Below, in pieces: positions 386-31,182 of a stretch of DNA of 32,000 nt. Positions within the stretch are counted from its first letter, which is position 1. Each line of letters opens with the position of its first letter. The stretch comes from Candidatus Scalindua sp. (GTDB taxonomy: Bacteria; Planctomycetota; Brocadiia; Brocadiales; Scalinduaceae): positions 150,001 to 182,000 of the forward strand of contig JALDRA010000001.1 in assembly GCA_031316235.1 (NCBI GenBank), read 5' to 3'. The position numbers and the translations under genes were made by a program. Below the pieces are notes generated by a model. It was not told the origin of the DNA. It did not search any database and saw only the letters and a program-made list of their open reading frames with translations.

Positions 386-446
386 TATACTCATCTCATA
401 CTGGATTTCGGATAAAATCCGAGATAAAATTGAGCGAGTAAAGTCC
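386..446 (-). repeat. Repeat family copy A: module M2 (long form) in inverted orientation
   Basis: 61/61 nt identical to the reverse complement of 1264-1324. Contains the TCGGAT-N3-ATCCGA palindrome. Followed by CCCCGGACAAAAAAGGGG. Confidence 0.9.
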
Positions 447-656
447 CCGGACAAAAAAGGGGTCAGAATGATGAAAGAATAAAGCTGAACCAACCGTTTC
501 TCTCTTCTTACCTATAATTCCGGCATTTGCAAAAAAACAGTTCTCTTTAAAATAGTACTTGACATTATCTGAATATTTTTATTACCATCTTGCCGAATGG
601 TATTCAGTAGAATTATCCCCGTTGATTTTCTCTGTCGACGTAACATTTCAGATTTT

Positions 657-1022
657 ATGATTATAGATACGAAATTAAAGCAAGTGCATTTCACGAAAGC
701 ATGCTTAGTTTTACTATTATGCTTCTCAATTCTTTCGGAAGCTGTTTTCTCGTTTGAAGACACTTTCGATAGAGGAGAAATAGGTTCTGCTTCCTCAGAA
801 GGCACGAGCACCTGCAATGAACACCACTGTCCTGTTGTCCCCAATCAACCCTGCCAGCATTGCCCGGTCTGTTGTACCGTTTCTCATCATTTTACAAATC
901 AGTCAACCGGAATTACTTTCCATTTTAACAATTCATCTCAACCTTTTTCACTTGCTGAAGAGGTTCTTGACAAAGAACTCTTTGCAAAAACACTCTTTCG
1001 TCCTCCACAATCAATTCTTTAA
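657..1022 (+). CDS. Small putative secreted Cys/His-rich protein upstream of the OMF gene (hypothetical)
   Basis: ORF 597-1022. The internal ATG at 657 gives a signal-peptide-like N-terminus (MIIDTKLKQVHFTKACLVLLLCFSILSEA), followed by CNEHHCPVVPNQPCQHCPVCC. No clear SD. Occupies the position held by czcI in classical czc operons. Confidence 0.35.
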   Translation: MIIDTKLKQVHFTKACLVLLLCFSILSEAVFSFEDTFDRGEIGSASSEGTSTCNEHHCPVVPNQPCQHCPVCCTVSHHFTNQSTGITFHFNNSSQPFSLAEEVLDKELFAKTLFRPPQSIL

Positions 1023-1185
1023 TTCTTCCATTTTTATTCAAGTGTTCCCCTGTTTCATTGATGACTCAATACACAATAGAGTTTGTTTGTGAAAAACAAG
1101 ACTTGCAGTCGGTCATGTGGTCCAATTACGTTCATAGAAAACTATTTTGTAGCTCAAGTATTAGTCAGCAATCAGTGATACAGGA

Positions 1186-1324
1186 TATACTAAAACCGAT
1201 TTGGTTTTCGATTTTACCGGAAACCAAATCCTGGTGAAGGTATCCCCGGACAAAAAGCGCCGAGGACTTTACTCGCTCAATTTTATCTCGGATTTTATCC
1301 GAAATCCAGTATGAGATGAGTATA
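1186..1324 (+). repeat. Repeat family copy B: modules M1+M2 with a 27-bp internal insert
   Basis: M1 (1186-1243) has a 10-bp perfect stem, GATTTGGTTT (1198-1207) / AAACCAAATC (1221-1230). The insert CCCCGGACAAAAAGCGCCGAGGACTTT (1244-1270) is absent from copy D. M2 spans 1271-1324. Otherwise 3 mismatches to 20004-20115. Confidence 0.9.
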
Positions 1325-1428: not shown

Positions 1429-2709
1429 ATGATCTATCCGGTACATCATTTTAAGTATGTAACTGTTGTAACATTATTAGCGTCTATACTCTTTTTGACT
1501 TCTCATGTGTCAATTGCTCGGGAAGAGACAGATGCTGAAACTGTCAATCTCGAAGAATGTATCACAAGAGCATTTGAGAACAATTTACAGATCGCTGCTG
1601 CAAGAAACAGATTAGGTACATCAGAGGCTGACCGCATTAAGTCGTCATTGCTTTTTCCTTCAAATCCTAAATTGAATACCAGAATAGGAACAAGAAATTC
1701 ACCATCACCTGCAGACAGACATACGGACTATTCGGTTTCACTATCTCAGGAGTTTCAGGTTTATGGCCAGAGACGAAAAAGAATAAACGTATCTGATAAA
1801 TTGATTGAAAGGGTGAAATTTGAAATTTCTGATGTGGAAAGAAACGTTATTGCGAAGGTCAAGACTAATTTTTATGAGGCGTTAACTGCCTTGGAAATTT
1901 TAAAGCTTCGCGAATATGTCGAAAGTATTTTCGAAAAGTTATGGGATGCTTCCAGTGAGCGATTCAAAGCCGGTGCAATATCCTCACTTGAACTCAATTC
2001 AATACAGATAGGTTATGGGCAGGCAAGACAACAGCTTCTTGTCGCAAAGAGTAACTATCAAAACAGTCTCTTAAATTTGAAACTCCTTCTGGGTATGTCC
2101 AGGGAGGAACAATTAAATATCGTTGGCAGACTGTCTTATGAGAAATTTCAAATAAGTATGGAAGACATTTTGGACTCTGCCTACAAGATAAGGCCTGACC
2201 TGAAGGCAATAGAGTTTGAGAAAGAAAGGGCCTCTCAGGAAATATCACTCCGTAAGGCGGAGATTATTCCAAATCCCAGTGTATCAGGATTTTTCAGCAG
2301 AGAAGAAGGGGATGATGATATCGTTGGCGGGCAGGTGTCCGTTTCAATACCTGTATGGGATAGAAAACAGCCTGAACTTAAAAGGGCTCGGACTGCGAAA
2401 GGCACAGCAAACATAAATATCAAAAATAAGCGACTGGAGATACAAAAGGAAGTGGCTGTTGCATATCGTACTTTTATGGCAGCAAAAGGCAGTTTAGCAA
2501 TCTATACTGATGAAATTATACCGAAGGTCGACGAAAATCTGACACTAAACGAAATATCATATAAAGAAGGTAAGATTGATTTTATCGGATTCCTCACTGT
2601 ACAAAGGAATCTTTTAGAAGCCAGAGCTGCTTATTTAAGCGGATTGTTTGATTACAATAATGCCATTATCAACCTGGAGACCGTTTCGGGAATGAAATTA
2701 ATGCCCTAA
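1429..2709 (+). CDS. TolC-family outer membrane efflux protein (CzcC/CusC-like OMF), cluster 1
   Basis: 426 aa with N-terminal signal sequence and two-repeat OMF architecture (LEECITRAFENNLQIAAAR..., ...LLEARAAYLSGLFDYNNAIINLE). SD AGAGG upstream. Immediately precedes the adaptor and RND pump genes. Confidence 0.85.
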   Translation: MIYPVHHFKYVTVVTLLASILFLTSHVSIAREETDAETVNLEECITRAFENNLQIAAARNRLGTSEADRIKSSLLFPSNPKLNTRIGTRNSPSPADRHTDYSVSLSQEFQVYGQRRKRINVSDKLIERVKFEISDVERNVIAKVKTNFYEALTALEILKLREYVESIFEKLWDASSERFKAGAISSLELNSIQIGYGQARQQLLVAKSNYQNSLLNLKLLLGMSREEQLNIVGRLSYEKFQISMEDILDSAYKIRPDLKAIEFEKERASQEISLRKAEIIPNPSVSGFFSREEGDDDIVGGQVSVSIPVWDRKQPELKRARTAKGTANINIKNKRLEIQKEVAVAYRTFMAAKGSLAIYTDEIIPKVDENLTLNEISYKEGKIDFIGFLTVQRNLLEARAAYLSGLFDYNNAIINLETVSGMKLMP

Positions 2710-2774: not shown

Positions 2775-3983
2775 ATGAGTATACGATTATCTGGAATTTT
2801 ACTCGTGTTGTTGCTGCTTTTTTCTCAGATTTCATGCAAGAAACCAACAACGGGCGTGACAGGCACCGGGGAACATGGAGAACATGCTCACGAGGAGCAT
2901 AGCGAGGGAGAACATACCGGAGAGCAGAGAGTACAAATTTCTCCACAGGAAATGGAGGAGTTTGATGTAGAGGTGGCAGAAGCGCTTCCCGGCAAAATAC
3001 TTATCGACTTGCACTTGCCCGGTGAGGTTGTTTATGATCCAGCCAGGGTGGTGCACATTGTACCGAGAGTCCCGGGTATTGTAACAAAAGTGCACAAAGA
3101 AATTGGTGATCAGTTGAGGGAAGGAGAAGTCATGGCGGTCTTAGAAAGCAGAGAACTTGCATCCGCTAAGGCGAATTACCTTGCGGCCATTGAAATCCTT
3201 TCTCTGGCCGAGGCAACTTATAACCGTGAAAAAAAACTGTGGGATAAAAATATTTCCTCCGAACGCGAATATCTGGATGCCCAGACAAGGTTGGCAGAAG
3301 CCAGGATTCAGTTACATAAATCCCAACATCAACTCATGGCTCTTGGTTTCACGAAAGAATATGTAGATGAACTCAAGCACGGTTCAGAAGATATGTCACA
3401 CTTCGAAATAACATCACCGTTCAGTGGGGCCATTGTCGAAAAGCATATTACACTGGGTGAAAAAGTGGATGACCAAAACCCGGTGTTTACCGTTGCAGAT
3501 CTCAGTACTGTCTGGGTTTATTTGACGGTCTACCAGAAAGATCTGGAATCAGTTCGTGTTGGCCAAACTGTTACCATACGAGAGCAACAAGGCCTGCACA
3601 GCACTAAATCCAGGCTTGATTATATAACTCCCTTTGTGGAAGAATCCACACGTACCGCGACCGCCCGGGTGGTCCTGGATAATTCTAAAGGAGAGTGGCA
3701 TCCCGGTGCCTTCGTATCGGGTGAGGTTATTATCGATGAATTTGAAGTGAAAATTGCAGTGCCTCGTACCGCTTTGTTAGTCGTTCAGGAAAAAAATATT
3801 ATTTTTGTGAAGATCAAAGACGGGTTTGAACCTCGCCAGGTAACTCTAGGCAGAAAGAACGAAGCAAACCTGGAGATTTTATCAGGCCTGGACAGGGGTG
3901 AACAGTACATTAGCAGAGGAGGATTTACCCTCAAGTCAGAACTTGGAAGAAGCAGTCTTGAAGGAGGAGGACATGCACATTAA
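2775..3983 (+). CDS. Efflux RND periplasmic adaptor (MFP, CzcB/CusB-like) lipoprotein with His-rich N-terminal tract
   Basis: 402 aa. Lipobox-like FSQISC. GEHGEHAHEEHSEGEHTGE tract and C-terminal GGGHAH. HlyD/MFP core motifs (ITSPFSGAIVEKHITLGEKV, VFTVADLSTVWV). SD GGAGA. Confidence 0.9.
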   Translation: MSIRLSGILLVLLLLFSQISCKKPTTGVTGTGEHGEHAHEEHSEGEHTGEQRVQISPQEMEEFDVEVAEALPGKILIDLHLPGEVVYDPARVVHIVPRVPGIVTKVHKEIGDQLREGEVMAVLESRELASAKANYLAAIEILSLAEATYNREKKLWDKNISSEREYLDAQTRLAEARIQLHKSQHQLMALGFTKEYVDELKHGSEDMSHFEITSPFSGAIVEKHITLGEKVDDQNPVFTVADLSTVWVYLTVYQKDLESVRVGQTVTIREQQGLHSTKSRLDYITPFVEESTRTATARVVLDNSKGEWHPGAFVSGEVIIDEFEVKIAVPRTALLVVQEKNIIFVKIKDGFEPRQVTLGRKNEANLEILSGLDRGEQYISRGGFTLKSELGRSSLEGGGHAH

Positions 3984-4001: not shown

Positions 4002-7000
4002 ATGGAAAGATTAATTGATTTTTCTCTCAGGAACCGGCTGTTGATGATTGTTCTTACAATAATAGTCATTGCCGGTGGATACTACAGTTACAGGAAGCTT
4101 CCCGTTGACGCCTTTCCGGACGTTTCTCCGAACCTGGTGCAGATATTTACAGTCACCGAAGGATTGGCTCCGCAGGAAGTAGAGAAATACGTTACCTTTC
4201 CTATTGAGATGGCCATGACCGGGCTGCCAGGGCTGGAGAAGATCAGGAGTGTTTCCAACTTTGGACTCTCCGTGGTGAATATCTATTTCGAAGATGGTAT
4301 GGACATCTATTTCTGCCGTCAGGTGGTCAACGAACGATTGCAGGAAGCCCGTGATCAGATCCCGGAAGGATTTGGTGAGCCGGGAATGGGCCCCATATCT
4401 ACAGGTATGGGACTGGTTCTCTTTTATTATCTCGAAGATACAACGGAAAAATACTCCCTTGAGGAACTCCGCACCATCCAGGACTGGGTAATCAAATTAA
4501 ACCTGCAGACCGTGCCCGGTGTAACGGAGGTGTTGGGTATTGGTGGATATGAAAGGCAATACCATGTCGTTGTTCAACCTGAAAGTTTGCTGCGCTATCA
4601 TGTCACTCTCCAGGAAATTGTAGAACGTGTAAAGGCTAATAATCTTAACGTTGGCGCACAATTCATCGAGAAAAATCGTGAAGAATTCATCGTACGTTCC
4701 GTGGGACTGGCTGATGGAATTGATGACCTTCAAAGAATTATTATTAAAACGGTAGATGGCCGTCCAGTATATCTCGATAGTATTGCCGATATACAGATCG
4801 GAGGAGCAGTTCGACGTGGTTTGCAGACGAGAAACGGGCAAGGGGAAGTGATCGCAGGCATGGTTATCAAGCTATTCGGAACAAATGCCTCGACCATTAT
4901 CGGACGTGTGGAAGAAAAGATAAAGGAGGTAAATAAAATCCTGCCTGATGGTATTCGAATTGTACCTTATTACCAGCAGAAAGATATCGTGGAGGCATCA
5001 GTCAGTACCGTGAGAAATGCCTTAATACAAGGCATTGTACTGGTAGCCCTGGTCTTGCTTGTTTTCATGGGTGGCTTTCGCCCCAGTCTCGTGGTTGCTA
5101 TGGCCATTCCCTTTTCCGTCATGTTTGCGTGTATTGCCATGTATTACTACAATCTTTCAGCAAACTTAATGTCTCTGGGAGGGCTGGCAATTGCCATTGG
5201 CATGATGGTGGATGGTACCATTGTTATGGTGGAAAATGTAGACAGGCTTCTTCGTGAAGCAGCTCCAGATGAGTCGAGGATACACGTGGTAGCCCGGGCG
5301 TGCAAAGAAGTTGCCCGCCCTATTACGTTTGCCATATGTATTATTGTCATAGTCTTTTTGCCCCTTTTCACTCTCCAGGGAGTTGAGGGTAAGACTTTCA
5401 AACCACTGGCTTATACTGTCTCCCTGGCAATGCTGGGTTCGCTGGTTTTTGCTATACTGATGGCTCCCCTCTTGAGCAGTTATTTAATGCGCAGGCCTGG
5501 ATCAAAGAAGGGCAAAAAGGAAGGGAGTGAATCATTCGTTGTAAAGATATTGCTGATCCCTTATCGGCCACTTGTCGTGTTTTTTGTTCAAAGACGCATC
5601 TATGCCATTATTCTGGCAGTGGTGCTCCTTTTACTTGGTGGTCTGGTTTACCCCAGGCTCGGTTCAGAATTCACCCCTAAACTCAAGGAAGGGACTGTGG
5701 TCGTACGTCTAACTATGGCCCCGTCAATCGCTTTGACAGAGAGTAAACGTATGACCATGGTAGTTGAACGTAAACTGCTCAACATACCGGAGGTCAGGGA
5801 GGTAGTCACTCGAATTGGGAGGGGTGAAGTGGGTGCACATTCAGATCCGATCAATTCCGCGGAAATCTATGTGCTTCTGAAGCCAGAAAAAGAGTGGCGG
5901 AGAAAAGGAGATCAGGAATATATCGAGGAACTCATCAGGGAAGAACTCGGGGTAATGCCGGGTATTCTGAGTAACCTGACTCAGCCGATCGAGATGACAG
6001 TGGATGAGTTGTTGGAAGGGGTAAGGGCCGAACTGTCTATTAAACTATTCGGGCGTGATCTCGACACATTGAAAAGCAAGGCCGATGAAATAGCCAGCGT
6101 GATACAAACTATTCGTGGAGCAGCAGATGTTCAGGCAGACCAGGTCAGCGGAAAACACCAGCTTCTCATTCGACCTAAACGTGAAGCTATCGCCCGCTAC
6201 GGCATTAATCTTGAAGATGTACAGAAGGTGATAAGGTCAGCCGTTGGTGGTGAAATTGCCGGTCAGATATTTGAGGGAATCCGTCGTTTTGGTATATTGG
6301 TACGCTACGAACCTGATGCACGACGCACACGTGAAGATATCGAAAACCTGTTGATCGAGGCTCCAGGTGGTACAGTCGTACCTCTGGTGGAATTGGCGGA
6401 GATACAGGAGATAGTGAGCCCACGCCAGATTATGCGGGAAGATACTCAAAGATTTATTACGGTCCAGTGTAATGTCGTGGGCAGGGATATCGGGTCATTT
6501 GTGGAAGAGTCACAACAGGCAATTGATGATACGGTGGATCTTCCACCCGGTTATCTCATGACATGGGGTGGGCAATTTCGGCTCCAGCAGGAGGCAAACA
6601 AACGATTTTCCGTGGTGATCCCGGCCACAATCCTTATCGTAAGCCTGTTATTATTCAGTAATTTTGGCTCACTCAAGAACACTCTGCTTATTCTTCTCAA
6701 TATTCCTCTGGCGCTGGTAGGAGGTATAATAGCTTTGTGGATAACAGGTCAGAACCTCTCCGTGCCGGCTTCAGTTGGTTTCATCGCGTTATTTGGAATT
6801 GCACTTGAAAACGGCATGGTGCTGCTGACTTATTTAAAACAACTCATCCGTGATGGTCTTTCAATAGATGAAGCCTCAATCAAGGGTGCATGCCTTCGAT
6901 TGCGCCCTGTTCTGATGACGGCGGTAACCACCGCATTGGGACTTATACCCCTACTCCTTGCATCAGGCACCGGCAGCGATGTGCAACGGCCGCTTGCCAC

Positions 7001-7130
7001 GGTAGTTGTCGGCGGATTGGTTACCTCTACAGTCTTGACACTCCTGGTTATACCAGCGCTTTTCAAATGGTTTTCTGTTCCGTTAGAGACAGAAATTTCG
7101 CATAATAATAAAATAATCAGGGAAGGTTAA
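4002..7130 (+). CDS. CusA/CzcA-family heavy-metal efflux RND pump 1
   Basis: 1042 aa, 12-TM RND layout. N-terminus MERLIDFSLRNRLL. TM4 signature AIGMMVDGTIVMVEN (5193-5237). C-terminal SDVQRPLATVVVGGLVTST. Confidence 0.93.
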   Translation: MERLIDFSLRNRLLMIVLTIIVIAGGYYSYRKLPVDAFPDVSPNLVQIFTVTEGLAPQEVEKYVTFPIEMAMTGLPGLEKIRSVSNFGLSVVNIYFEDGMDIYFCRQVVNERLQEARDQIPEGFGEPGMGPISTGMGLVLFYYLEDTTEKYSLEELRTIQDWVIKLNLQTVPGVTEVLGIGGYERQYHVVVQPESLLRYHVTLQEIVERVKANNLNVGAQFIEKNREEFIVRSVGLADGIDDLQRIIIKTVDGRPVYLDSIADIQIGGAVRRGLQTRNGQGEVIAGMVIKLFGTNASTIIGRVEEKIKEVNKILPDGIRIVPYYQQKDIVEASVSTVRNALIQGIVLVALVLLVFMGGFRPSLVVAMAIPFSVMFACIAMYYYNLSANLMSLGGLAIAIGMMVDGTIVMVENVDRLLREAAPDESRIHVVARACKEVARPITFAICIIVIVFLPLFTLQGVEGKTFKPLAYTVSLAMLGSLVFAILMAPLLSSYLMRRPGSKKGKKEGSESFVVKILLIPYRPLVVFFVQRRIYAIILAVVLLLLGGLVYPRLGSEFTPKLKEGTVVVRLTMAPSIALTESKRMTMVVERKLLNIPEVREVVTRIGRGEVGAHSDPINSAEIYVLLKPEKEWRRKGDQEYIEELIREELGVMPGILSNLTQPIEMTVDELLEGVRAELSIKLFGRDLDTLKSKADEIASVIQTIRGAADVQADQVSGKHQLLIRPKREAIARYGINLEDVQKVIRSAVGGEIAGQIFEGIRRFGILVRYEPDARRTREDIENLLIEAPGGTVVPLVELAEIQEIVSPRQIMREDTQRFITVQCNVVGRDIGSFVEESQQAIDDTVDLPPGYLMTWGGQFRLQQEANKRFSVVIPATILIVSLLLFSNFGSLKNTLLILLNIPLALVGGIIALWITGQNLSVPASVGFIALFGIALENGMVLLTYLKQLIRDGLSIDEASIKGACLRLRPVLMTAVTTALGLIPLLLASGTGSDVQRPLATVVVGGLVTSTVLTLLVIPALFKWFSVPLETEISHNNKIIREG

Positions 7131-7262: not shown

Positions 7263-8663
7263 ATGGAAAAACAACAACGTATGATAAACCGGTTATTTCT
7301 GTTGTCAGGAATATTTTTTTCAGCATTTCTTTTTATTCAAATTATATGTATGAGCTGTTACGCAAATGAAGTTCATACCAAGCAGACGGAAAGTGTTGTT
7401 AGGGATGCAAATCGATTGTGGTGTAATGAACACGGTGTCTATGAAGACGAATGTTTTATTTGCCATCCTGAATTAAAATCCGATAACAGCGAAGTACCAT
7501 CAGTGGAACTTTATTGTGAAGAACACAGGGTACTGGAAAAAGAGTGCGGAATATGTCGCCCTGAGTTAACATCTTCACTTTTACCTGGCAAAGGTCTAAA
7601 GGTGAGACTGGAGTCTCCAGAGTCTGCGGCAAAAGCAGGTGTAGTCACTGCTTTTCCAGATGAAGATAAACACCCTGCCACTCATAGTGTTCTGTGTCAA
7701 GTTTCTTACAACATGAATTTTTTTGCCCGCATAACGCCTTTAACTTCAGGAGTTGTTCGGAGAGTCCTTGCAGATGTGGGTGCATATGTGTCTAAAGATG
7801 ATGTCCTGGTAGAGATTATCTCATCTGAAATTGCAAGCGCAAAAGTCGATTATTTAACTGCTCTGGTAAATGAAACATTAAAGGAGCTGGTTTATGAACG
7901 GGAAAAAGGGCTTTTTGAAAAAAAAATCTCTTCACAGCGTGAGTATCAGCAGGCACGGGCAGAATACCAGGTCGCTACACACACCACGAATACAAGACGT
8001 CAACAACTTCTCAATTACGGATTTACAGAAGCTGAAGTTAAAAAGATTGTTGAAACCCGTTCAAGCTCTTCTATTCTTCCTATCCGCGCTCCATTTTCAG
8101 GAACGATTATTGAGAGAAATGCCGTTCTGGGAGAAGCAGTTGAACTGGGCGACACTCTTTTTTCTCTGGCAGACCTGTCTACAATGTGGCTTGAGCTTTC
8201 TATTCCAGAATACCTGTTGTCTTTTTTCAGGGTGGGTAATACTGTCGAAGCAAATTTTCATAGTCTTCCCGGGAAAAGACTGCATGGGAACTTAATCTGG
8301 TTGGCATCTGGCATAGAAGAAAAAAGTCAGATGTTAAAGGGGCGTGCAATTGTGGAAAACCCGGAGTTTCTGCTAAAACACGGAATGTTTGGAAAAAGCT
8401 CACTCTTGTCTGAGCAGCCTGATAAAGGGCTGTATGTTCCTCTTGAGTCCATACAACGATTTGATAACAAGTCTTTCCTGTTTGTTAAGCTGTCAGACGA
8501 TCTTTACGAAATTCGCAGGGTTGTACCGGGTAGCAGAAACGATGATAAGATTGAAATTATTGAAGGAGTATCGCTTCATGAAAAGGTAGTTGTCGAAGGG
8601 AGTTTTACCTTGAAATCAGAATTCCTCAAATCTCGTCTTGGGGAGGGGTGTGTCGATGAATAA
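7263..8663 (+). CDS. Efflux RND periplasmic adaptor 2 with twin N-terminal C-x2-H-x6-C-x2-C modules
   Basis: 466 aa. TM/signal segment, then WCNEHGVYEDECFICHPEL and YCEEHRVLEKECGICRPEL, then the MFP core (IRAPFSGTIIERNAVLGEAV, LFSLADLSTMWL). Overlaps the next gene by 8 nt. Confidence 0.9.
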   Translation: MEKQQRMINRLFLLSGIFFSAFLFIQIICMSCYANEVHTKQTESVVRDANRLWCNEHGVYEDECFICHPELKSDNSEVPSVELYCEEHRVLEKECGICRPELTSSLLPGKGLKVRLESPESAAKAGVVTAFPDEDKHPATHSVLCQVSYNMNFFARITPLTSGVVRRVLADVGAYVSKDDVLVEIISSEIASAKVDYLTALVNETLKELVYEREKGLFEKKISSQREYQQARAEYQVATHTTNTRRQQLLNYGFTEAEVKKIVETRSSSSILPIRAPFSGTIIERNAVLGEAVELGDTLFSLADLSTMWLELSIPEYLLSFFRVGNTVEANFHSLPGKRLHGNLIWLASGIEEKSQMLKGRAIVENPEFLLKHGMFGKSSLLSEQPDKGLYVPLESIQRFDNKSFLFVKLSDDLYEIRRVVPGSRNDDKIEIIEGVSLHEKVVVEGSFTLKSEFLKSRLGEGCVDE

Positions 8664-11600
8664 AATCATTGAATTCTCTCTGAAAAACAGGCTGGTTATC
8701 CTGATACTATTTGCCGTATTTATTGGTATTAGCGTTCGTGCTGTCATGCACATACCCATAGACGCATTTCCCGACACCACCCCTGTACAGGTTCAGATTA
8801 ATACCGTTGCGTCTAATCTTAATCCCTCGGAGATAGAACAACAAATAACACTGCCAATTGAACTCTCCATATCTGGTTTTTCAGGTCTTATTAACGTGCG
8901 CTCCATATCAAAGTTTGGTCTATCTCAGGTTATTGCAACGTTTGATGACAACACCAACATTTACGATGCTCGTCAATTCATTATAGAACGACTTATAAGT
9001 GTTGATCTGCCTGAAGATATAGATCGACCGCAATTGGGTCCTATCTCCACCGGTCTTGGAGAGGTTTTCCATTATATTCTACGATCTTCAAATCCTGATC
9101 GGACACTTGATGAACTCAGAACCATTCATGACTGGATTATAAAACCAGAACTTCGCAAGGTGTCCGGGGTGGCTGAAGTTAATTCGTGGGGCGGTTTTGA
9201 ACGTCAATACCAGGTAATCGTCTCGCCCGAGTCCCTGGTAAAATACACTTTGACGCTGAACAAGGTATTTGAAACGCTTGCCCAGAATAATCAGAATGTG
9301 GGTGGTGGACGAGTCGTATCAGCAGGGCAATCTCTGCTTGTGCATGGACTGGGCCGTGTCAGCACAATTGAACAGCTAGAAAACATAGTACTGAAGGCCC
9401 ACAAAGGCGCTCCCGTTTATATCAAGGATGTTGCTGATGTGGTAATAGGACACGAAATCCGTCGAGGAGCAGTAACTTCCGGTGGGCAAGGAGAGGTTGT
9501 TCTGGGCCTTGGTTTTGCCTTAATGGGTGAAAATAGCAAAAAGGTAACTGAAGGGTTGAAAAAGAGTCTTGATGTTGTTCGTAAATTCTTACCCGATGAT
9601 GTAGAGGTGGAAATTGTTTACGACCGCACTGATCTTATAACTAAGGTAATCAATACGGTAAAGCATAATTTAGTTTACGGGGCAATACTTGTAGTTCTCG
9701 TATTATTCCTGATATTGGGCAATTTACGAGCTGGGTTACTTGTCGCAATTGCAATTCCAATTTCAATGCTTTTTGCTATTTTCGGTATGTATGAATTTTC
9801 TATAGCTGCCAGTCTATTAAGCATGGGGGCTATTGACTTTGGTATTATTGTAGACGGATCTGTGGTAATGACAGAAATAAATATGCGAAAACTAAACGAC
9901 AGGCAGCGGCATTTAGGAAGACCATTGACAAATACGGAACGTCTGCAGAGCATATCTGAATCCAGTAAAGAGGTTATCCGTCCCATTATTTTCGGCATGG
10001 GTATTATCATAATTGTCTTTCTCCCTATCCTGGCACTGGAAGATATTGAAGGAAAGATGTTCAGACCAATGGCATGGACATTTATCTATGCAATGATTGG
10101 GGCGCTGACAATTGCCCTATTACTTTCGCCCATATTGTCTTATTATTTTTTACCAGGAAAAAGAAGAGAAAAAGAAGGTTTTATAGAACGCATCATAAAA
10201 GGAGGATACACAACTTCACTTTCACTGATACTCCGATGGAAATACACACTATTTGGTATTGTGTTTTTTCTCCTATTAGGGACGATCATTATCGCAACCA
10301 GGCTGGGAGGTGAATTTATACCAAAACTTAAAGAAGGTTCCATCGTCATTAACACCATACGCCTGGCAGGAGTATCAATTGAGGAAGCAGTTGCCTACAA
10401 CTCCCGCATTGAGAAACTCCTGCTTGGTCTCTTTCCAGACGAAATCAAAAACATCTGGAGTCGGGTAGGAACAGCTGAAGTTGCCACAGATCCTATGGGT
10501 ATAGAACTGACAGATATTTTTATCACACTGAATACCAGAGACCAGTGGAAACAAGCGAGAACGCAGGCTGAACTAATCAAGCAAATGGAAGAAGAACTTG
10601 AAGACTTGCCCGGTGTAAACATGATCTTTACCCAACCCATTGAAATGCGCTTGAATGAGATGGTTACCGGCATCAGATCAGACGTGGGTATTAAGATTTA
10701 TGGTGACAACTTTGAAGAACTGGTTCGTCTCAGCAATAGGGCACAGGAAATTCTCAAGAGCGTCAAAGGCGTTTCAGATATTGCCGGAGAGCAGATTACA
10801 GGGCAACCTACCCTTCAAGTAATTGTGAACCAGGATCAGATTGCAAGATACGGCATCACGGCAAGTAACGTGCTTAATCTCGTCAAAACGGTTGGCGCTC
10901 ATCAGGTAGGCGACATCTTTGAAGGGCAGAGGAGTTTTCCGCTTGTAGTCAGGTTACCCGAAAAACAACGTACCGATGTAGATGCTCTGGCTAAAACACT
11001 CATTCCAACTGAATCAGGACAAATTTTGCCGCTTCGTAATTTAGCTGAAGTCAGGGAAACAGAAGGTTATTCAACTATAAATCGGGAATGGGGACGTCGT
11101 TTAATAAAGATACAATGCAATGTCAGGGACAGGGATATAGCCTCTTTTGTGCAGGAAGCACAAACTCGCATTGAGAACGAAATGAGTCTGCCTGACGGAT
11201 ATGTAATCGAATGGGGAGGTCAATTTGAACATCTGAAACGTTCCAAAATACGTTTTATGATTGTTGTGCCCATAGCGCTTTTACTAATATTTTTAATGCT
11301 GTACTTCAGCCTGAAAAACCTTGTTGATGTATTCATTATTTATACAGGTATTCCATTTGCGTTTATAGGAGGTGTTTCTGCTCTATGGGGACGAGGCATG
11401 CCTTTAAGTGTAAGCGCTGCTATTGGGTTTATAGCCCTCAGTGGTATTGCTGTTCTTAATGGTCAGATTCTGGTATCTACTATCAGAGTGCTAAGGAAGG
11501 AAGGTCTTGTTTTTGGTGAAGCTGTCAAGGCAGCAGCCAATCAACGTTTGCTTCCTGTAATGGCAACTGCAATCACTGATGCTGTAGGATTTATACCAAT

Positions 11601-11802
11601 GGCTATTTCAACCAGTGTTGGAGCCGAAGTTCAGCGACCGCTTGCTACCGTGGTAATTGGTGGTGTAACTACTTCTACTCTGCTAACCTTATTTGTACTT
11701 CCAGCACTGTATCTCACCATGGGAAAGAAAATGGCGAAAACCAGCAATAAAAGTGTCCCCAGGCCAAATCCTGAGAAAAGTGTCAGGCATGACGCAATAT
11801 AG
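8656..11802 (+). CDS. CzcA-type heavy-metal efflux RND pump 2
   Basis: Start moved to ATG 8656 (MNKIIEFSLKNRL, matching the other pump N-termini; ATGA-type overlap with the adaptor stop). TM4 signature DFGIIVDGSVVMTEIN (9835-9882) keeps the D/D/E triad of CzcA. Confidence 0.92.
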   Translation: MNKIIEFSLKNRLVILILFAVFIGISVRAVMHIPIDAFPDTTPVQVQINTVASNLNPSEIEQQITLPIELSISGFSGLINVRSISKFGLSQVIATFDDNTNIYDARQFIIERLISVDLPEDIDRPQLGPISTGLGEVFHYILRSSNPDRTLDELRTIHDWIIKPELRKVSGVAEVNSWGGFERQYQVIVSPESLVKYTLTLNKVFETLAQNNQNVGGGRVVSAGQSLLVHGLGRVSTIEQLENIVLKAHKGAPVYIKDVADVVIGHEIRRGAVTSGGQGEVVLGLGFALMGENSKKVTEGLKKSLDVVRKFLPDDVEVEIVYDRTDLITKVINTVKHNLVYGAILVVLVLFLILGNLRAGLLVAIAIPISMLFAIFGMYEFSIAASLLSMGAIDFGIIVDGSVVMTEINMRKLNDRQRHLGRPLTNTERLQSISESSKEVIRPIIFGMGIIIIVFLPILALEDIEGKMFRPMAWTFIYAMIGALTIALLLSPILSYYFLPGKRREKEGFIERIIKGGYTTSLSLILRWKYTLFGIVFFLLLGTIIIATRLGGEFIPKLKEGSIVINTIRLAGVSIEEAVAYNSRIEKLLLGLFPDEIKNIWSRVGTAEVATDPMGIELTDIFITLNTRDQWKQARTQAELIKQMEEELEDLPGVNMIFTQPIEMRLNEMVTGIRSDVGIKIYGDNFEELVRLSNRAQEILKSVKGVSDIAGEQITGQPTLQVIVNQDQIARYGITASNVLNLVKTVGAHQVGDIFEGQRSFPLVVRLPEKQRTDVDALAKTLIPTESGQILPLRNLAEVRETEGYSTINREWGRRLIKIQCNVRDRDIASFVQEAQTRIENEMSLPDGYVIEWGGQFEHLKRSKIRFMIVVPIALLLIFLMLYFSLKNLVDVFIIYTGIPFAFIGGVSALWGRGMPLSVSAAIGFIALSGIAVLNGQILVSTIRVLRKEGLVFGEAVKAAANQRLLPVMATAITDAVGFIPMAISTSVGAEVQRPLATVVIGGVTTSTLLTLFVLPALYLTMGKKMAKTSNKSVPRPNPEKSVRHDAI

Positions 11803-14598: not shown

Positions 14599-17538
14599 TT
14601 ACGGGTATTTCTCAATGCTTTTGGTCAATTCATGGGCAATGTTTCCGCTTACAAGACGCATGATACTCTCTTCCGCCGTTCCAAAACTTAATAAGTTTAT
14701 GCTTCCATACCAGACTATTTTCTGATCAATAATCGCGAATTTCTGATGAATATTTGACTTAAAGAGAACATTAATTCCCGTTTCCTTCAAGGCATTAAAT
14801 ATCTGTACCAGGTGTGATCTCCTGGTATCTTTAAAATCTTCAGCAGGCCTTGTCATTACTGTTACTTTCACTTTATTTTTTAAGATAGTGTGGAAGTATT
14901 GCATCATTCGAGGAACACGCCGGTTTGTTACAAATGGGCTGACAATCAATACCTCTCTGGCTGCGTTAACGATATCGCTGGTATAAACAGGGAAAAAGCT
15001 GTGTTTATCAAAAATAATCTCAGTAGGTATCTCAGTAACAATTTCTCCCTTTGCCCTATAACCGATAGATGCATAGCCTCCTAACCTTCTTCCATACATT
15101 TTCTCAAGTATTCTTACCTGAATATCCACATAGTCGTATATCCGTATTTCATTTTTATTTTCATATACTCTATGCAGTCTTCCGGCGTACTGCTGCAATG
15201 TGCCTTTCCAGGAAACAGGCATGGCTAAAAATAAAGTATCAAGGCGAGGCTCATCAAATCCTTCGCCAACATATTTACCGGTAGCAACCAAAGTCAATGG
15301 CTTATTTGCAGGTGTTGCAGATATTCTTTCAAATATCTCTCTCGTCTCTTTAACGCCCATACTTCCCACTAATGCTATTACATCCGGTATTCTCTCCCTG
15401 AGTTTATTTGTAAGGGATTTAACATGTGCAGTCCTTTCTGTTAAAATGAGAGAGTTCCTGCCGTTTTCATAACAACTTACAACATCATCCACGATTACCT
15501 GATTGCGTATTTCGTCTTCTATTAATTCCGAATAGATTTCTTGAATAGTTAACTCTTTTTCATTTTTGCCGGCTGAAATTCTAAAATATGAAAACCTCGG
15601 TATGACATAGTGGTCAAAAGGCATCTTTTCCGCCTGTTTTTTTGCATCGACTGTGAACCTTATCGGACCACAATATAAAAAAATAATCGGATGGTGTCCA
15701 TCCTGCCTTTCCGGTGTTGCCGTTAAGCCGTATATAAATTTTGCATTTGATTCTTTTACTATTTGTTCAAACCTAAAAGCTGGAATATGGTGACACTCAT
15801 CAACAATAATCATGCCATATTTCTTGACACTTTCCTTTACTTCACCTGCCGTATTTAATGATTGCATAATTGCAACATCAATGATGCCACTCAACCGGTC
15901 TTTTCCCGCTCCTAATTGTCCAATCAGACTTTGTTTCCTTTTTCTCCCTCGCTTTTCAGGCTGTTCCGGAAGCTGTTCATTAATAATCAAAAATTCTGAT
16001 AACCTGGTCATCCATTGTGATAGTAATTGTTGCCTATGCACCAGTATTAATGTGCTTACTTTGCGTTCAGCGATCAAACTTGCTCCAACAACTGTTTTTC
16101 CAAAAGCTGTTGTAGCGGATAACACCCCATTTTCATAACGTATTAATTCATCTACTGCACTGCGCTGTTCGTCTCTGAGCGCTCCATTAAATTCAACATC
16201 TATGGCCTTGCCATGATTTGTTTCATCAATCCAATTAGCATCTACATTATATTCATTTAAAAGATTACGGACATCGTCTTCACACCCTCGCGGCAAACAT
16301 AGGTACTTCTCTAAATCATCAGAACACGATATTACTCTTGGCTTGTTATAAGTAGGCATTCTCATCGCTTGAGATTTATAAAAGTCAGGATTTCTAAAAG
16401 CAGCTAATCGTTTTAAAGCATTTAACGCCCTGGAAGAAAATCCGGTTTTCCAGATATAGTGCATACCGGATTTAACTATTTTGACATTATCGGGAACATC
16501 TTCTTTCCGCAGTTTGACAGGAGTTGGTACCCATGGCGTATCTACCTCGACATCATCTTTTTTTAATGTACCCAATTCATTACCAGCACAAAGCCTGGTA
16601 ATTAAACAGGTCAAGTTCGTCTCGGAAAGCCTTTGAATACCAGCCAGAAATTCCCACTGATCTGCGTATGGGTCAAATTTTCCATCTACAAAGACACTAT
16701 TCCCATTTTGCCTTGCTGACATTTGAAGTGGCAGCGCTATTAAATTTCCAAATCCCCCTTTTGGCATAGTATCTTGATTAGGAAAAAATCGATCATAGGA
16801 CTTAAATGAAATTGCATGCCTCTTATTCATTGAATATGTCAGTAAAGATGTCCCGAATTTTCTGACAAGCGCCGCCGATACCCTATCCTCGAAGAAAAAC
16901 CAGGCATGTGCTCCATCACCTGATCTTGAACGCTCGACAGCAATAGGGATTTCAAATTTCCTACAGACATCACGTATAACAGAAACATCTTTTCCCCATT
17001 CATCATCGTCAAAATCAATCACTAAAAAAAAACAGGTTTCATCAGGAAACATCGGATAAATGCCAATAACAGATTTACCTCTAAGATGTTCTTCAACGGT
17101 ATTCACGTTTAATTGAGCATATAATTTCTGTGTGCATTTGGAGCATTTGATTTTTGGCTTTGCACAGACTCCCGGTTTCCACTCATTCAAACACACAGGA
17201 GAATATCCAGACACGCCTTTTTTATCTTGCCATCTTTTCGCATATACATCTTCCCTGCCCTTAAAAAGAGACATAAAAAGAATTATTTTATTTTTTGTGT
17301 CAGAAAAATTATTAAGAGGTTCAGCCTCAGCCTCTGTTTCTATAGATTCAATTCTGGGTATATTCTCACAGATATCCATGCTTGTTTCCTCAAAAGGTAG
17401 ATCTTCTACCGAGGTTGATTCCACCTGCAAAATACCGCTATTGAACTCAAGCATATTTATTTTATCTCTAAGTTTCGTGTTCTCTTCAAGTAGCGACTGA
17501 TATCTTCTGTATAATTCTTTGTAGCTGAATTTTTTCAT
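14599..17538 (-). CDS. Fusion protein: AEP/prim-pol-like domain + SF2 (DEAD/DEAH-type) helicase + C-terminal PLD/HKD nuclease domain
   Basis: 979 aa. AEP-like motifs VIDFDDDE, SRSGDGAHAWFFF, GGFGNLIALPLQ (aa 86-272). Helicase motifs AFGKT, DECHH, LTATPER, QYAGRLHR (aa 452-815). HKD motif HQKFAIIDQKIVWYGSINLL (aa 931-950). Confidence 0.85.
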   Translation of the reverse strand: MKKFSYKELYRRYQSLLEENTKLRDKINMLEFNSGILQVESTSVEDLPFEETSMDICENIPRIESIETEAEAEPLNNFSDTKNKIILFMSLFKGREDVYAKRWQDKKGVSGYSPVCLNEWKPGVCAKPKIKCSKCTQKLYAQLNVNTVEEHLRGKSVIGIYPMFPDETCFFLVIDFDDDEWGKDVSVIRDVCRKFEIPIAVERSRSGDGAHAWFFFEDRVSAALVRKFGTSLLTYSMNKRHAISFKSYDRFFPNQDTMPKGGFGNLIALPLQMSARQNGNSVFVDGKFDPYADQWEFLAGIQRLSETNLTCLITRLCAGNELGTLKKDDVEVDTPWVPTPVKLRKEDVPDNVKIVKSGMHYIWKTGFSSRALNALKRLAAFRNPDFYKSQAMRMPTYNKPRVISCSDDLEKYLCLPRGCEDDVRNLLNEYNVDANWIDETNHGKAIDVEFNGALRDEQRSAVDELIRYENGVLSATTAFGKTVVGASLIAERKVSTLILVHRQQLLSQWMTRLSEFLIINEQLPEQPEKRGRKRKQSLIGQLGAGKDRLSGIIDVAIMQSLNTAGEVKESVKKYGMIIVDECHHIPAFRFEQIVKESNAKFIYGLTATPERQDGHHPIIFLYCGPIRFTVDAKKQAEKMPFDHYVIPRFSYFRISAGKNEKELTIQEIYSELIEDEIRNQVIVDDVVSCYENGRNSLILTERTAHVKSLTNKLRERIPDVIALVGSMGVKETREIFERISATPANKPLTLVATGKYVGEGFDEPRLDTLFLAMPVSWKGTLQQYAGRLHRVYENKNEIRIYDYVDIQVRILEKMYGRRLGGYASIGYRAKGEIVTEIPTEIIFDKHSFFPVYTSDIVNAAREVLIVSPFVTNRRVPRMMQYFHTILKNKVKVTVMTRPAEDFKDTRRSHLVQIFNALKETGINVLFKSNIHQKFAIIDQKIVWYGSINLLSFGTAEESIMRLVSGNIAHELTKSIEKYP

Positions 17539-17593
17539 AAAACTTTATAATCCAATTAGACAAAATTGTATTATATTTAGAATCAAGAAAAAC

Positions 17594-18646
17594 CTACCCC
17601 CGAAGTGCAAAAAATTGGTTGAAGGGATTTTCAATAGAAAGTTTCTCAAAACAGGAGTAACCTGCTTCTTCTGCAAGTTTTCTTGCCCCACTTTCACCGA
17701 TAATTGTACCAAGCCCTTTGCCACGGTGAGCCATGGATACCGTAAGACAATGGAAAGGGCTAAGGGATGAGAACGTTTTACCCACCGGATTTCTACAATC
17801 GAGTGGATTATCTGAGGCGTTGGGCTCAGACCAAAAAAGAGTCCCATTGTCCGTAAGAGCTTCACGGATTGCCTTCAGTGCTGAGAGTGGGTCTGCCATA
17901 TCGTGAATGCAATCCAATGTGCAAATCAGGTCATAGAATTTCTTTCCAGGGATCGCGCTGGCAGATGCTTCAAGAAACTCAATGTTGGTTAATCCTTTAG
18001 ACTCCGCAAGTTTTCTTGCTCGATCAATACTCGATCCGTGGTAATCAATTCCCAAAACCTTTGATTTCGGGAATGCCTTCGCTATTGCCACTGAGGACTG
18101 TCCGCAGCCACAACCGATATCCGCTATATTTATCCCTTTTTCCAGCTTATCTGTCAGACCGGGTACCGTGTTCAGCCAGTCCCTGGCGAGAAAGTGCAGG
18201 TAGCCCGGGCGAAAAAAACGCTCAATCGCTTCCGGAATTTCTTCACCTATATCCGAATAAGAAATTCCTCCTCCATTTCGGAAGGCATTCATAATTTTCT
18301 GTACATTCAAAATCGTGGGAGTAGTAAAATGAAACGCACCTCCGGCAAACATCTGACTATCTTCGTTGGCCAGTACGCATGCCTGTTCATCGGTCATGAT
18401 GTATCGGTCAGAAGATGGGTCGTAATCTAAGTACTCAGCCGCCACCATAGCCTTAGCCCACTCCCTGATATAGCGCTCATTGAGTTTTGTTTTTTCCGCG
18501 AGTTCTAAACTTGTAAGCAGCCCTGTGCCTTCCATAGCTTTGAAAATCCCCAATCGGTCTCCGATGTATCCAAGAGCCATGGTGAAAGCGCCTCCCATAT
18601 CACCAACAATACGAAACGCCAGTTCTTCTGCTTTACTATTACCCAT
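17594..18646 (-). CDS. Class I SAM-dependent methyltransferase with N-terminal winged-helix dimerisation domain (Rv2258c-like)
   Basis: 350 aa. SAM motif I IADIGCGCGQSSVAIA. N-terminal wHTH-like LLTSLELAEKTKLNERYIREW. SD GAGGAG overlaps the arsR stop, 10-nt gap (operonic). Confidence 0.8.
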   Translation of the reverse strand: MGNSKAEELAFRIVGDMGGAFTMALGYIGDRLGIFKAMEGTGLLTSLELAEKTKLNERYIREWAKAMVAAEYLDYDPSSDRYIMTDEQACVLANEDSQMFAGGAFHFTTPTILNVQKIMNAFRNGGGISYSDIGEEIPEAIERFFRPGYLHFLARDWLNTVPGLTDKLEKGINIADIGCGCGQSSVAIAKAFPKSKVLGIDYHGSSIDRARKLAESKGLTNIEFLEASASAIPGKKFYDLICTLDCIHDMADPLSALKAIREALTDNGTLFWSEPNASDNPLDCRNPVGKTFSSLSPFHCLTVSMAHRGKGLGTIIGESGARKLAEEAGYSCFEKLSIENPFNQFFALRG

Positions 18647-18656
18647 TTTGATCTCC

Positions 18657-19031
18657 TCACAATAAAAGATTAATTACTTTTGGTTTTTTTACCTTTTTTG
18701 CCTTCAGTCTTTTGCCTTCCTTCCGAACCTCTTCACACGAACGGCGTTCAATTGGATAGTTTCCTGAAATGAATGTAAAGAGTGCATCTACCATTCGGGG
18801 GCGTATGATGTAATAACAACGTAGTACTCCAACCTCGTAAAAATCAATTACCTTGAGATTGCGCAGCATTGAAAGATGTTGAGAGAGGTTAGATTGCTCA
18901 ATTTCAAGTAAATCCTTGATATCAGTTACACATTTAGCTCCCTTAACAAGCTCTTCTAAGATCAATAGTCGAGTTGGATGTCCCAGGAGCTTTAGAACCT
19001 CTGCTTTATCTCTCATGTCTAATTTGTTCAT
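18657..19031 (-). CDS. ArsR/SmtB-family transcriptional regulator
   Basis: 124 aa. LKLLGHPTRLLILEELVKGAKCVTDIKDLLEIEQSNLSQHLSMLRNLKVI is the canonical ArsR wHTH. Lys-rich C-terminal tail. Confidence 0.88.
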   Translation of the reverse strand: MNKLDMRDKAEVLKLLGHPTRLLILEELVKGAKCVTDIKDLLEIEQSNLSQHLSMLRNLKVIDFYEVGVLRCYYIIRPRMVDALFTFISGNYPIERRSCEEVRKEGKRLKAKKVKKPKVINLLL

Positions 19032-19035
19032 TTGT

Positions 19036-19062
19036 CAACCATATTTTCAGAAAATATAGTTG
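19036..19062. promoter_or_regulatory. 12-3-12 imperfect inverted repeat, candidate ArsR operator in the divergent promoter region
   Basis: CAACCATATTTT-CAG-AAAATATAGTTG (11/12 arm complementarity), 5 nt from the arsR start codon. TATAAT on the + strand at 19081-19086. Confidence 0.45.
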
Positions 19063-19178
19063 TTGATTGTATGATAATATTATAATATAGTCAAGTTTGT
19101 CTTTAACGCTTCAGTTTTTTGCGGCAAATAGTAGTTCGCACGTAATACTCAGGTGTTATTTCATTACGCGTCCAAAGT

Positions 19179-19233
19179 TATACTCATCTCATAATGATTT
19201 TCGGATAAAATCCGAGATAAAATTAAGCGAGTA
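19179..19233 (-). repeat. Repeat family copy C: module M2 in inverted orientation
   Basis: TATACTCATCTCATAATGATTTTCGGATAAAATCCGAGATAAAATTAAGCGAGTA; 4 mismatches to copy A and ~6/54 to the reverse complement of M2 in copy D. Confidence 0.85.
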
Positions 19234-19261
19234 TATTAAGAAAAATCAGGGAGACAAAGCG

Positions 19262-19927: not shown

Positions 19928-20003
19928 CGCTGTTTTAGGTTGACTCAAACATTTCCTGTCCATGTATTTGTTGCTCTCGCATTATATAAATACATTTAAT
20001 ATT

Positions 20004-20115
20004 TATACTAAAACCGATTTGGTTTTCGATTTTACCGGAAACCAAATCTTGGTGAAGGTATACTCGCTCAATTTTATCTCGGATGTTGTCCGAAATCCAG
20101 TATGAGATGAGTATA
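20004..20115 (+). repeat. Repeat family copy D: modules M1+M2 (short form, no insert)
   Basis: 112 bp. M1 stem GATTTGGTTT (20016-20025) / AAACCAAATC (20039-20048). M2 spans 20062-20115, with the palindrome degraded to TCGGATGTTGTCCGA. Confidence 0.9.
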
Positions 20116-20890: not shown

Positions 20891-21225
20891 GAGATCCAGG
20901 AAAGAGCAATGCTATGCACAGGAGCGGAAAATCTTATATTACGGACAGGACAAAAGAAATAGCGATGGAGAATATCTTAGCGTGCAGAACGTTCTCACCC
21001 CTTAGCCCTTTCCATTATAGAGTAAATATTTTTTATTGACAAAAAGCATCCTTATGTTATTTTTAAAATGATAGGTTACGATAGGCTGTCCTGGCTGACT
21101 TTTCCAAATCTCCTGAAACTGCCGTCTCTGGTAGTTTTTACGAAATTTTACATTTGTCCATTCAGGGCATAGCATAAGTAACTAGTGAATTTATTCATAA
21201 ATTTAGACTACTCTTGCCCTTAACT

Positions 21226-31146: not shown

Positions 31147-31182
31147 TATACTAAAACCGATTTGGTTTTCGGTTTTAGTATA
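31147..31182. repeat. Repeat family copy E: M1-related perfect hairpin
   Basis: TATACTAAAACCGA-TTTGGTTT-TCGGTTTTAGTATA (14-bp perfect stem). The first 26 nt match M1 of copies B and D with one substitution. Lies 29 nt past the ATPase stop codon. Confidence 0.85.

Follow-up and report, generated by a model that had tools for sequence, protein, structure and literature searches.

A stretch of 32,000 nucleotides from a Candidatus Scalindua genome (positions 150,001 to 182,000 of contig JALDRA010000001.1, assembly GCA_031316235.1; referred to as the window) contains a pair of perfect 61-bp inverted repeats enclosing a promoter and a small open reading frame (ORF) upstream of a heavy-metal efflux operon. 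Very probably, the two arms represent independent copies of a small mobile repeat resembling MITEs (miniature inverted-repeat transposable elements), and the 939-bp stretch delimited by them is not a cassette. In this scenario, the spacer separating the small Cys/His-rich gene from the gene encoding the outer membrane efflux protein (OEP) received a full copy at a TA, which was apparently duplicated, and a truncated copy lies in opposite orientation downstream of an lpxD-like gene. Since copies of the family are very alike, the M2 parts of the two arms are identical, resulting in an inverted repeat of 61-65 bp around pre-existing DNA. The bracket is then a by-product of two insertions and not a functional unit.

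Both Arms of the Inverted Repeat Belong to One Family of Short Repeats

The inverted repeat reported in the first-pass annotation of this DNA is real. Positions 386-446 and the reverse complement of 1264-1324 agree over all 61 bases, and a pattern search of the window retrieved the arm at these two places only (386-446 on the plus strand and 1264-1324 on the minus strand, with no mismatches between them); the same pattern had no match in 100 dinucleotide-preserving shuffles. By means of a repeat finder the arms were extended to 65 nt with one mismatch (386-450 and 1260-1324, 98% identity), leaving 809 nt between them. The features forming this bracket are as follows:

Positions 386-450, minus strand: left arm, a 5'-truncated repeat copy consisting of module M2 (55 nt) and approximately 10 nt of module M3, in opposite orientation to 1186-1324
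Positions 444-466, plus strand: M3-like hairpin fragment (TCCCCGGACAAAAAAGGGGTCAG) where the left arm meets the enclosed DNA; the visual comparison was with an M3 variant from L097
Positions 1186-1324, plus strand: complete 139-nt repeat copy, composed of M1 (1186-1242), the M3 hairpin (1243-1269) and M2 (1270-1324)

The last 61-65 nt of the complete copy constitute the right arm. Its M1 module forms a hairpin (GATTTGGTTT/AAACCAAATC), and the TCGGAT-AAA-ATCCGA palindrome of M2 as well as the TATAC(T) ends of the modules, both pointed out previously, are present in the sequence. The left arm corresponds to model positions 75-138 (nhmmer), and its BLAST alignments with family copies end at position 450. 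Since approximately 10 nt of M3 were kept on this side, the identity of the arms runs 4-10 nt beyond the M2 border. The A-rich loop of the adjoining M3-like fragment has the orientation opposite to that expected beside an M2 oriented in this way, which accounts for a 14-nt direct repeat (D1; 444-457 and 1243-1256); the reversed hairpin is regarded as a putative local rearrangement within a palindrome.

A 19-base pattern derived from M2 was scanned across 8-kb blocks of GTDB representative genomes, with all counts representing lower bounds. Matches were obtained in at least 116 blocks, 110 of which originate from metagenome-assembled genomes (MAGs) of Candidatus Scalindua or the Scalinduaceae, namely RBC_AMX3, SCAELEC01, CBDCUS01, OFTM1 and the Planctomycetota bin MFD09964. 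The remaining six, which belong to different taxa, showed no further similarity to the family and were dismissed as chance matches, and no match was found in viral contigs. Searching the fetched blocks with nhmmer and 1186-1324 as the query yielded at least 168 copies, and a family profile search brought the total to at least 185, with RBC_AMX3 contributing at least 96 copies (59 blocks) and SCAELEC01 at least 73 (42 blocks). Because 116 of the 168 nhmmer matches span the whole query, M1, the following 27 nt and M2 together represent the standard unit. The right end had been described as a composite of M1, a 27-bp insert and M2; these parts are indeed present, but together they make up one canonical full-length family copy, in which the supposed insert (1243-1269) is M3, an optional hairpin module of the family. 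Full copies run from TATACTAAAACCGA to GAGATGAGTATA, the start TATAC being found in 108 of 115 and the end GTATA in 104 of 115 of them.

An Empty Insertion Site and Signs of Recent Mobility

Full copies measure 111-201 nt and consist of hairpin modules only, with no coding capacity. Comparison of the consensus 5' end with the reverse-complemented 3' end revealed 18 matches in 26 positions, and both ends carry a bipartite terminal inverted repeat (TIR), TATACT-N10-TGGTTTTCGG, at equal distance from the tip. Among the 116 full copies, 104 are intergenic, and no orientation is preferred with respect to the neighbouring genes (26 co-directional, 31 opposed, 22 divergent and 11 convergent). Element flanks are not conserved, the sole trend being an A-rich base before the element.

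The closest available relative at the bracketed locus is the JGI metagenome contig L117, in which the protein encoded by the small ORF is 90% and the flanking DNA 92-97% identical. In the window, the filled site reads CAGGA-TA[TAC...GTA]TA-TCACTGACGAG, with TCACTGACGAGTACG as the longer right flank. Empty sites were found in three relatives: AAGGA-TA-TCACTGACGAG in L117 (again with the longer right flank TCACTGACGAGTACG), CAGGA-TA-TTACAGACGAG in L118 (CBDCUS01) and CAC-TATA-TCACTGG in L057 (SCAELEC01). Since the empty sites possess a single TA (or TATA) in place of the TA...TA of the window, the comparison shows, at the level of sequence, that 1186-1324 entered as a discrete unit at a TA and is flanked by TA on either side. 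This implies that the insertion would have duplicated the TA; considering the sequence alone, the element may instead have inserted beside a TA without duplication.

The first-pass annotation also postulated recent activity or gene conversion. In agreement with this, the closest relative features a clean empty site, and the variant AATCCAGT occurs in three of the four M2 copies of the window and in none of 147 copies from other genomes. These findings support that the family was recently active or that conversion occurred among local copies, as far as such patterns allow. Taken together, short non-coding copies, terminal inverted repeats, many dispersed occurrences, an apparent target duplication and filled/empty polymorphism were all found, and the repeat is apparently an undescribed MITE-like family specific to one Scalindua clade.

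The Enclosed Promoter and Small Gene

The DNA between the arms and the genes downstream of it, the latter annotated based on Pfam and NCBIfam, contain the following features:

Positions 559-588, plus strand: sigma-70-like promoter TTGACA-18-TACCAT, matching the consensus at 10 of 12 positions; not part of the repeat
Positions 657-1022, plus strand: small secreted Cys/His-rich protein of 121 aa, within ORF 597-1022; first gene of the heavy-metal resistance-nodulation-division (RND) locus
Positions 1429-2709, plus strand: OEP gene
Positions 2775-3983, plus strand: membrane fusion protein (MFP) gene
Positions 4002-7130, plus strand: CusA/CzcA-type RND pump gene
Positions 7263-8663, plus strand: second MFP gene
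Positions 8638-11802, plus strand: second pump gene

The TTGACA hexamer at 559-564 with TACCAT 18 nt downstream was correctly recognised before, as was the position of the Cys/His-rich ORF directly upstream of the operon, the pumps of which belong to the CusA/CzcA heavy-metal family. In total, 29 orthologous loci were compared, comprising 27 from metagenomes as well as L117 and L118. In all 20 loci with a sufficiently long contig, the small ORF is followed at a distance of 146-308 nt by a co-directional OEP gene, and 27 of the 29 keep the motif (TAGTA)CTTGACA upstream of the small ORF. In none of these loci does the lpxD-like gene adjoin the small ORF on its upstream side, and none of them has an element beside the small ORF, the sole copy being located approximately 1.5 kb upstream in L118. 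Moreover, the window's spacer from the small ORF to the OEP gene (406 nt) equals about 267 + 139 nt, i.e., an ordinary spacer plus the element. Since orthologous loci lacking the flanking repeats keep the promoter and small ORF ahead of the efflux operon, and since the spacer is the ordinary one enlarged by 139 nt, the interior is, judged from this comparison, ancestral and was in place before either arm arrived. A metagenome scan for filled or empty alleles with the conserved OEP leader GTACGTGTTTTCAKGCATAAWC returned no matches.

The small Cys/His-rich protein has homologs in 62 clusters, and those named by source are all from Scalindua; it matched no Pfam or NCBIfam entry. Members feature a signal peptide and a C-terminal LFRPPQSIL motif, and the residues C53, C58-P59, P62, P65, V71-C72-C73, H77 and F114-x-P116-P117-Q118 are invariant in alignment A3. 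In each ortholog with a sufficiently long contig, its gene opens a heavy-metal RND locus. The protein may be a periplasmic metal-binding accessory protein. The place of its gene in the locus is presumably that of czcI in the czc operon. Upstream of a second CusA/CzcA-type operon, at 21214-21621, lies another small ORF, which is His-rich (HFHQDHMHVHHTDKDH), has a hydrophobic N-terminal stretch resembling a signal peptide and matched no Pfam or NCBIfam entry. Homology between ORF 657-1022 and this ORF was considered and rejected; the two are merely positional analogues.

A Second Bracket and the Significance of Perfect Identity

A second bracket of like architecture, overlooked in the first-pass annotation, was observed at 19179-20115 and consists of the following features:

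Positions 19179-19235, minus strand: solo 57-nt M2 unit (TATACTC...GAGTATA), left arm of the second bracket, with an orthologous copy in L007
Positions 19262-19927, plus strand: gene for an S-adenosylmethionine (SAM)-dependent methyltransferase (Pfam Methyltransf_25/12/31/11), enclosed by the bracket
Positions 20004-20115, plus strand: complete 112-nt repeat copy with M1 and M2 sharing TATA and without M3, right arm of the second bracket

L007, originating from bin MFD09964, is 96% identical to window positions 17585-19955. It contains the solo M2 and the methyltransferase gene and lacks the right-hand element, and its gene order departs from that of the window shortly past the methyltransferase stop codon. 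Because L007 has the left M2 and the gene with no right element, the second bracket is, by this comparison, not a unit. In RBC_AMX3, no element is present upstream of the UPF0014 gene. The window repeat search detected no similarity between the interiors of the two brackets.

Regarding the arrangement of copies, 57 pairs of adjacent copies were counted in the fetched blocks: 32 are direct, 15 are inverted with tails out (two of them being those of the window) and 10 are inverted with heads out. Inverted pairs are therefore not commoner than direct ones in the fetched genomes (25 versus 32), and inverted brackets are not enriched in the family. Furthermore, 37 of 147 M2 copies are identical to the consensus, and random pairs of copies are identical in 6.4% of cases over 55 nt and in 1.8% over 61 nt; for this reason, perfect identity of two copies is unremarkable in the family.

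These data bear on the proposal of the first-pass annotation that the 939-bp stretch is a composite, excisable or invertible cassette. Its description of the arms as MITE-like structured repeats holds, since they belong to the family; the cassette part of that description does not. In a composite cassette, the inverted M2 ends would serve as long terminal repeats, and a transposase would move the promoter together with the small ORF as a single 939-bp unit. Mobilisation of enclosed DNA by MITE pairs is known from other systems, both outer ends are intact and recognisable family 3' terminal repeats (TATACTCATCTCATACTGGATTTCGG), and the second bracket is built alike. The TA outside both arms is uninformative in this respect because every copy has a TA. 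However, the interior is syntenic with the efflux operon in the 29 orthologous loci without arms, the right arm belongs to a self-contained element with its own empty site, L007 has just one arm of the second bracket, the two brackets share no interior similarity, and tails-out pairs are not enriched (15 of 57). The composite cassette is thus already largely refuted and regarded as extremely unlikely. The outcome is essentially one that the first-pass annotation had itself named as an alternative to its cassette, i.e., a MITE/REP family without cassette behaviour, although the family is not an annotated one. An integron gene cassette (attC) was also considered and rejected: the arms are in inverted orientation, their sequences show no GTTRRRY core, and no integrase domain was detected among the scanned ORFs.

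Homologous recombination between the 61-65 bp repeats might occasionally flip 447-1263 and thereby uncouple the promoter and small ORF from the operon, making the bracket an invertible switch as a by-product. The perfect inverted identity needed for this is present, and 61-65 bp exceeds the minimal length usually quoted for RecA-dependent recombination. Of the features of a fimS-type inverton, inverted repeats around a promoter are found here; no recombinase gene was detected among the scanned ORFs of the window, the window and all 20 orthologs that include the OEP gene have the ancestral, co-directional orientation, and inverted brackets are not enriched in the family. An occasional flip of this kind is accordingly considered very unlikely. 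It appears even slightly less probable that the chance bracket has become a working switch or mobilisable unit, in which recombination or the family transposase occasionally flips or excises the 809-bp segment with the promoter and the metal-binding-protein gene; if true, a heavy-metal efflux operon of an anammox bacterium would be under phase-variable control. Two independent insertions around resident DNA are the preferred explanation of the bracket.

Proposed Mode of Transposition

By analogy with TA-targeting MITEs derived from IS630/Tc1-mariner elements, copies of the family would move by cut and paste, catalysed by a TIR-binding DDE transposase supplied in trans. Several observations weigh against the interpretation of the arms as two insertions of such an element. 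The search for a cognate transposase or recombinase, as suggested in the first-pass annotation, retrieved no transposase with matching ends. In the 0.9 Mb fetched, none of the 589 ORFs of at least 180 aa is present in multiple copies, and the scanned ORFs of the window revealed no domain of a transposase or recombinase. Apart from the bipartite motif, the terminal repeats are short, and the element is dominated by hairpins. The TA duplication was deduced from one clean insertion compared with three relatives, and in a second comparison, precise to within one base, of the filled L035/L073 with the paralog L091, the empty site is A and not TA. Moreover, both brackets of the window are laid out alike, with a truncated M2 facing a full copy and the tails out, and the spacing between their arms is nearly equal (809 and 823 nt); this matching layout is regarded as a mild coincidence that is not fully explained. 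A lone 5' terminal repeat in L088 adjoins TPR and radical-SAM genes, which are unrelated, and additional terminal-repeat matches outside the nhmmer hits all proved to be mini or variant copies.

Because of the short terminal repeats and the dominance of hairpins, an enzyme acting on single-stranded DNA (ssDNA) or recognising hairpins has to be considered. The same family could be spread by a repetitive extragenic palindromic (REP) sequence-associated tyrosine transposase (RAYT) or by an IS200/IS605-type Y1 transposase instead of a DDE enzyme. Subterminal hairpins near both ends, the confinement of the optional hairpins X1-X3 to the interior of elements, where they lie in hairpin loops after TTAC/TTGC-like sequences, and the existence of mini palindromic derivatives would fit this assumption. 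On the other hand, both ends share a 26-nt inverted motif, the empty site has one TA versus two in the filled site, and left flanks are not conserved. REP elements possess a conserved GTAG-type head and cause no target duplication; IS200/IS605 elements have no terminal inverted repeats, and their insertion takes place 3' of a tetra- or pentanucleotide that is fixed, likewise without duplication. The element differs from these established features. Membership in the REP/REPIN-RAYT system was rejected, as its heads are TATAC and not GTAG and TA is found on both sides of the insertion; a palindrome-associated transposable element (PATE) derived from IS200/IS605 was rejected as well in view of the inverted terminal motifs and of left flanks that are variable apart from the TA. 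Spread by an ssDNA enzyme is therefore judged unlikely and weaker than transposition by a DDE enzyme.

Modules and Derivatives of the Family

Copies of the family fall into length classes. Those of 111-113 nt consist of M1 and M2 sharing TATA, as in 20004-20115; those of 130-146 nt contain M3, as in 1186-1324, a few of them carrying an X hairpin and no M3; those of 161-201 nt feature extra GC-rich hairpins (X1-X3), located in the loop of M1 or M2 or in the linker. In total, 61 copies contain M3. Approximately one fifth of the matches are 5'-truncated and start at module borders, and both left arms in the window are of this kind. The optional GC-rich hairpins were counted 121 times inside elements and five times 'outside', at least three of the latter lying in remnants missed by nhmmer. 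Their interpretation as a separate dispersed REP family was rejected, since they are essentially confined to elements; M3 and X1-X3 could be second-order mobile hairpins parasitising the element. Copies of approximately 190-245 nt, commonly about 193 nt, were observed in L006, L014, L031, L033, L034, L080 and L084 and contain a longer M1-loop insert (e.g., L014 7785-7978), representing one more module type in the mosaic. Furthermore, the orthologous copies L017:4498-4609 (SCAELEC01) and L079:6827-6939 (RBC_AMX3) have the same flanks and differ solely by a swapped linker block (GGTGAAGGTA versus GGTTGCAGTTA). Both linker types are spread through the family, and the swap suggests possible conversion between copies.

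In deletion derivatives of 56-57 nt, just the two terminal repeats are left, forming a single hairpin (L002:2557-2613 and 2897-2952). Mini derivatives of 29 nt (L056:6119-6147 and L113:154-182) seem to have arisen by deletion between the AAAACC repeats near each end. The occurrence of derivatives made up of the ends alone points to the ends as the putative essential part of the element. The window contains two further pieces of the family:

Positions 31147-31182, no strand assigned: 36-nt perfect palindrome, the family 5' terminal repeat folded on itself (TATACTAAAACCGA-N8-TCGGTTTTAGTATA), overlooked in the first-pass annotation
Positions 29902-29918, minus strand: 17-nt fragment equal to the 3' part of M1 (TCTTGGTGAAGGTATA...; blastn-short 17/17, E = 8e-5), probably a remnant of the family

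Other repeats were observed in addition. In L111, a different repeat of approximately 70 nt (TATATCACGCCAAGAC...AAATCGGTTTTAGTATA) is present at 7034-7104 and 7871-7945 and shares just the 17-nt 5' terminal motif of the family; its two direct copies flank approximately 770 bp, apparently with small minus-strand ORFs. A 29-nt inverted repeat with 97% complementarity is located at 17749-17777 and 20988-21016 of the window, i.e., in the 3' part of a helix-turn-helix (HTH)-methyltransferase ORF and shortly downstream of the UPF0014 gene. The latter copy is kept in RBC_AMX3 (L078), where it abuts a family element.

RNA-Level Roles

The first-pass annotation also raised the idea that pairing of the arms in RNA insulates the operon leader. 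A role at the RNA level could consist of such long-range pairing, of an RNase III site, or of a terminator or attenuator placed after the small ORF and before the pump genes. On either strand, folding of the element is far better than that of shuffled sequences (z = -4.9 and -5.0), the upper M1 stem shows some compensatory changes as well as many G-U pairs, and the full copy lies within the operon in sense orientation between the small ORF and the OEP gene. Strong folding of both strands is, however, expected for a chain of palindromes, and the family has no preferred orientation with respect to genes (26 co-directional versus 31 opposed). No terminator-like site was found in 300-1500. Rfam yielded no match at the gathering score in the whole window and, at permissive thresholds applied to 300-1500 only, a chance-level miRNA (E = 2.7). 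Moreover, relatives do without the element at this site. Owing to the conserved promoter between the arms, the main transcript would contain the right arm only, and long-range pairing of the arms could take place solely in read-through from the lpxD-like gene.

Wobble asymmetry favours the plus strand in M1 and the minus strand in M3, so that no single strand is preferred. Strand choice by wobble pairs was discarded as an argument: G-U pairs outnumber A-C pairs on the plus strand (188 versus 12), but many of them lie in doubtful helices and M3 prefers the minus strand. Covariation as proof of RNA function was dropped as well, the lower M1 stem being almost invariant and the upper stem mixed. 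Altogether, an RNA-level role is held to be quite improbable, and the insulator interpretation is not supported.

Comparison with Known Elements

Among described elements, IS630/Tc1-mariner MITEs such as RUP of Streptococcus pneumoniae and Nezha of cyanobacteria resemble the Scalindua element in being non-coding, high-copy, intergenic and approximately 110-140 nt long, in their terminal inverted repeats, in insertion at TA with apparent TA duplication, and in a presence that varies between close relatives. Based on their descriptions, the Scalindua element is set apart by its bipartite repeat with a variable 10-nt spacer and by its mosaic of two hairpin units plus optional modules, and no parent IS was found for it; no sequence relation is expected. 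The Correia elements (CREE/NEMIS) of Neisseria likewise duplicate TA, have TATA ends and a length of approximately 100-155 nt, form length classes by means of an internal segment, reach hundreds of copies that are often located beside or inside operons, and have no identified transposase. They belong to a different phylum and differ in sequence, and an IHF site, promoter elements and RNase III processing are features of Correia elements.

Variable combination of a few short hairpin units is also known from the bacterial interspersed mosaic elements (BIMEs) and REP sequences of enterobacteria, from BOX of pneumococcus and from ERIC/IRU, the ERIC sequences having internal insertions at fixed positions. 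The GTAG-type heads, lack of target duplication and RAYT ties of REP/BIME, as well as the A-B(n)-C module order of BOX, were not seen in the Scalindua element. MITE-flanked composites, e.g., integrons in Acinetobacter, resemble the bracket in that two inverted MITE copies enclose a gene-sized segment. In contrast to these, which contain foreign DNA and show target duplication outside the pair, the DNA enclosed here is resident and ancestral, and each copy represents a separate event. The family seems to be undescribed, since no paper linking Scalindua with such repeats was found in the library searched, yet it is an ordinary kind of element.

Further Features of the Window

Beside the brackets, a gene on the minus strand (14599-17538) encodes a 979-aa protein with an archaeo-eukaryotic primase domain of the TOTE conflict system (E = 7e-101), a ResIII/DEAD helicase domain and a PLD nuclease domain. 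Its product looks like that of a putative defence or conflict gene, and the gene adjoins those for the HTH-methyltransferase and an ArsR regulator. Exact-protein look-ups of the window methyltransferase and of homolog P0008 returned no record.

In the second heavy-metal efflux operon, a gene for a 23S-rRNA-intervening-sequence protein (25025-25405) is placed between the MFP and RND genes. A 182-bp tandem duplication (24808-25171; two copies, 96% identical) is located at the junction of this gene and the MFP gene, which ends at 24821.

Comparison of window positions 19928-20003 with L007:918-945 revealed a synteny break within approximately 50 nt of element 20004-20115. Past the break, the window continues into UPF0014 and L007 into unrelated, uncharacterised sequence. 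Family copies seem to mark synteny breakpoints.

Implications for Scalindua Genomes

For the annotation of these genomes, the results mean that a gene enclosed by long perfect inverted repeats should not be taken for a cassette or switch, since such repeats arise from a mobile repeat that is very abundant and very uniform. With at least about 100 copies per genome, polymorphic between close relatives and often located at synteny breaks and inside operons, the family is likely a driver of rearrangement and of assembly fragmentation in anammox MAGs. Moreover, it provides a ready strain marker for Scalindua.

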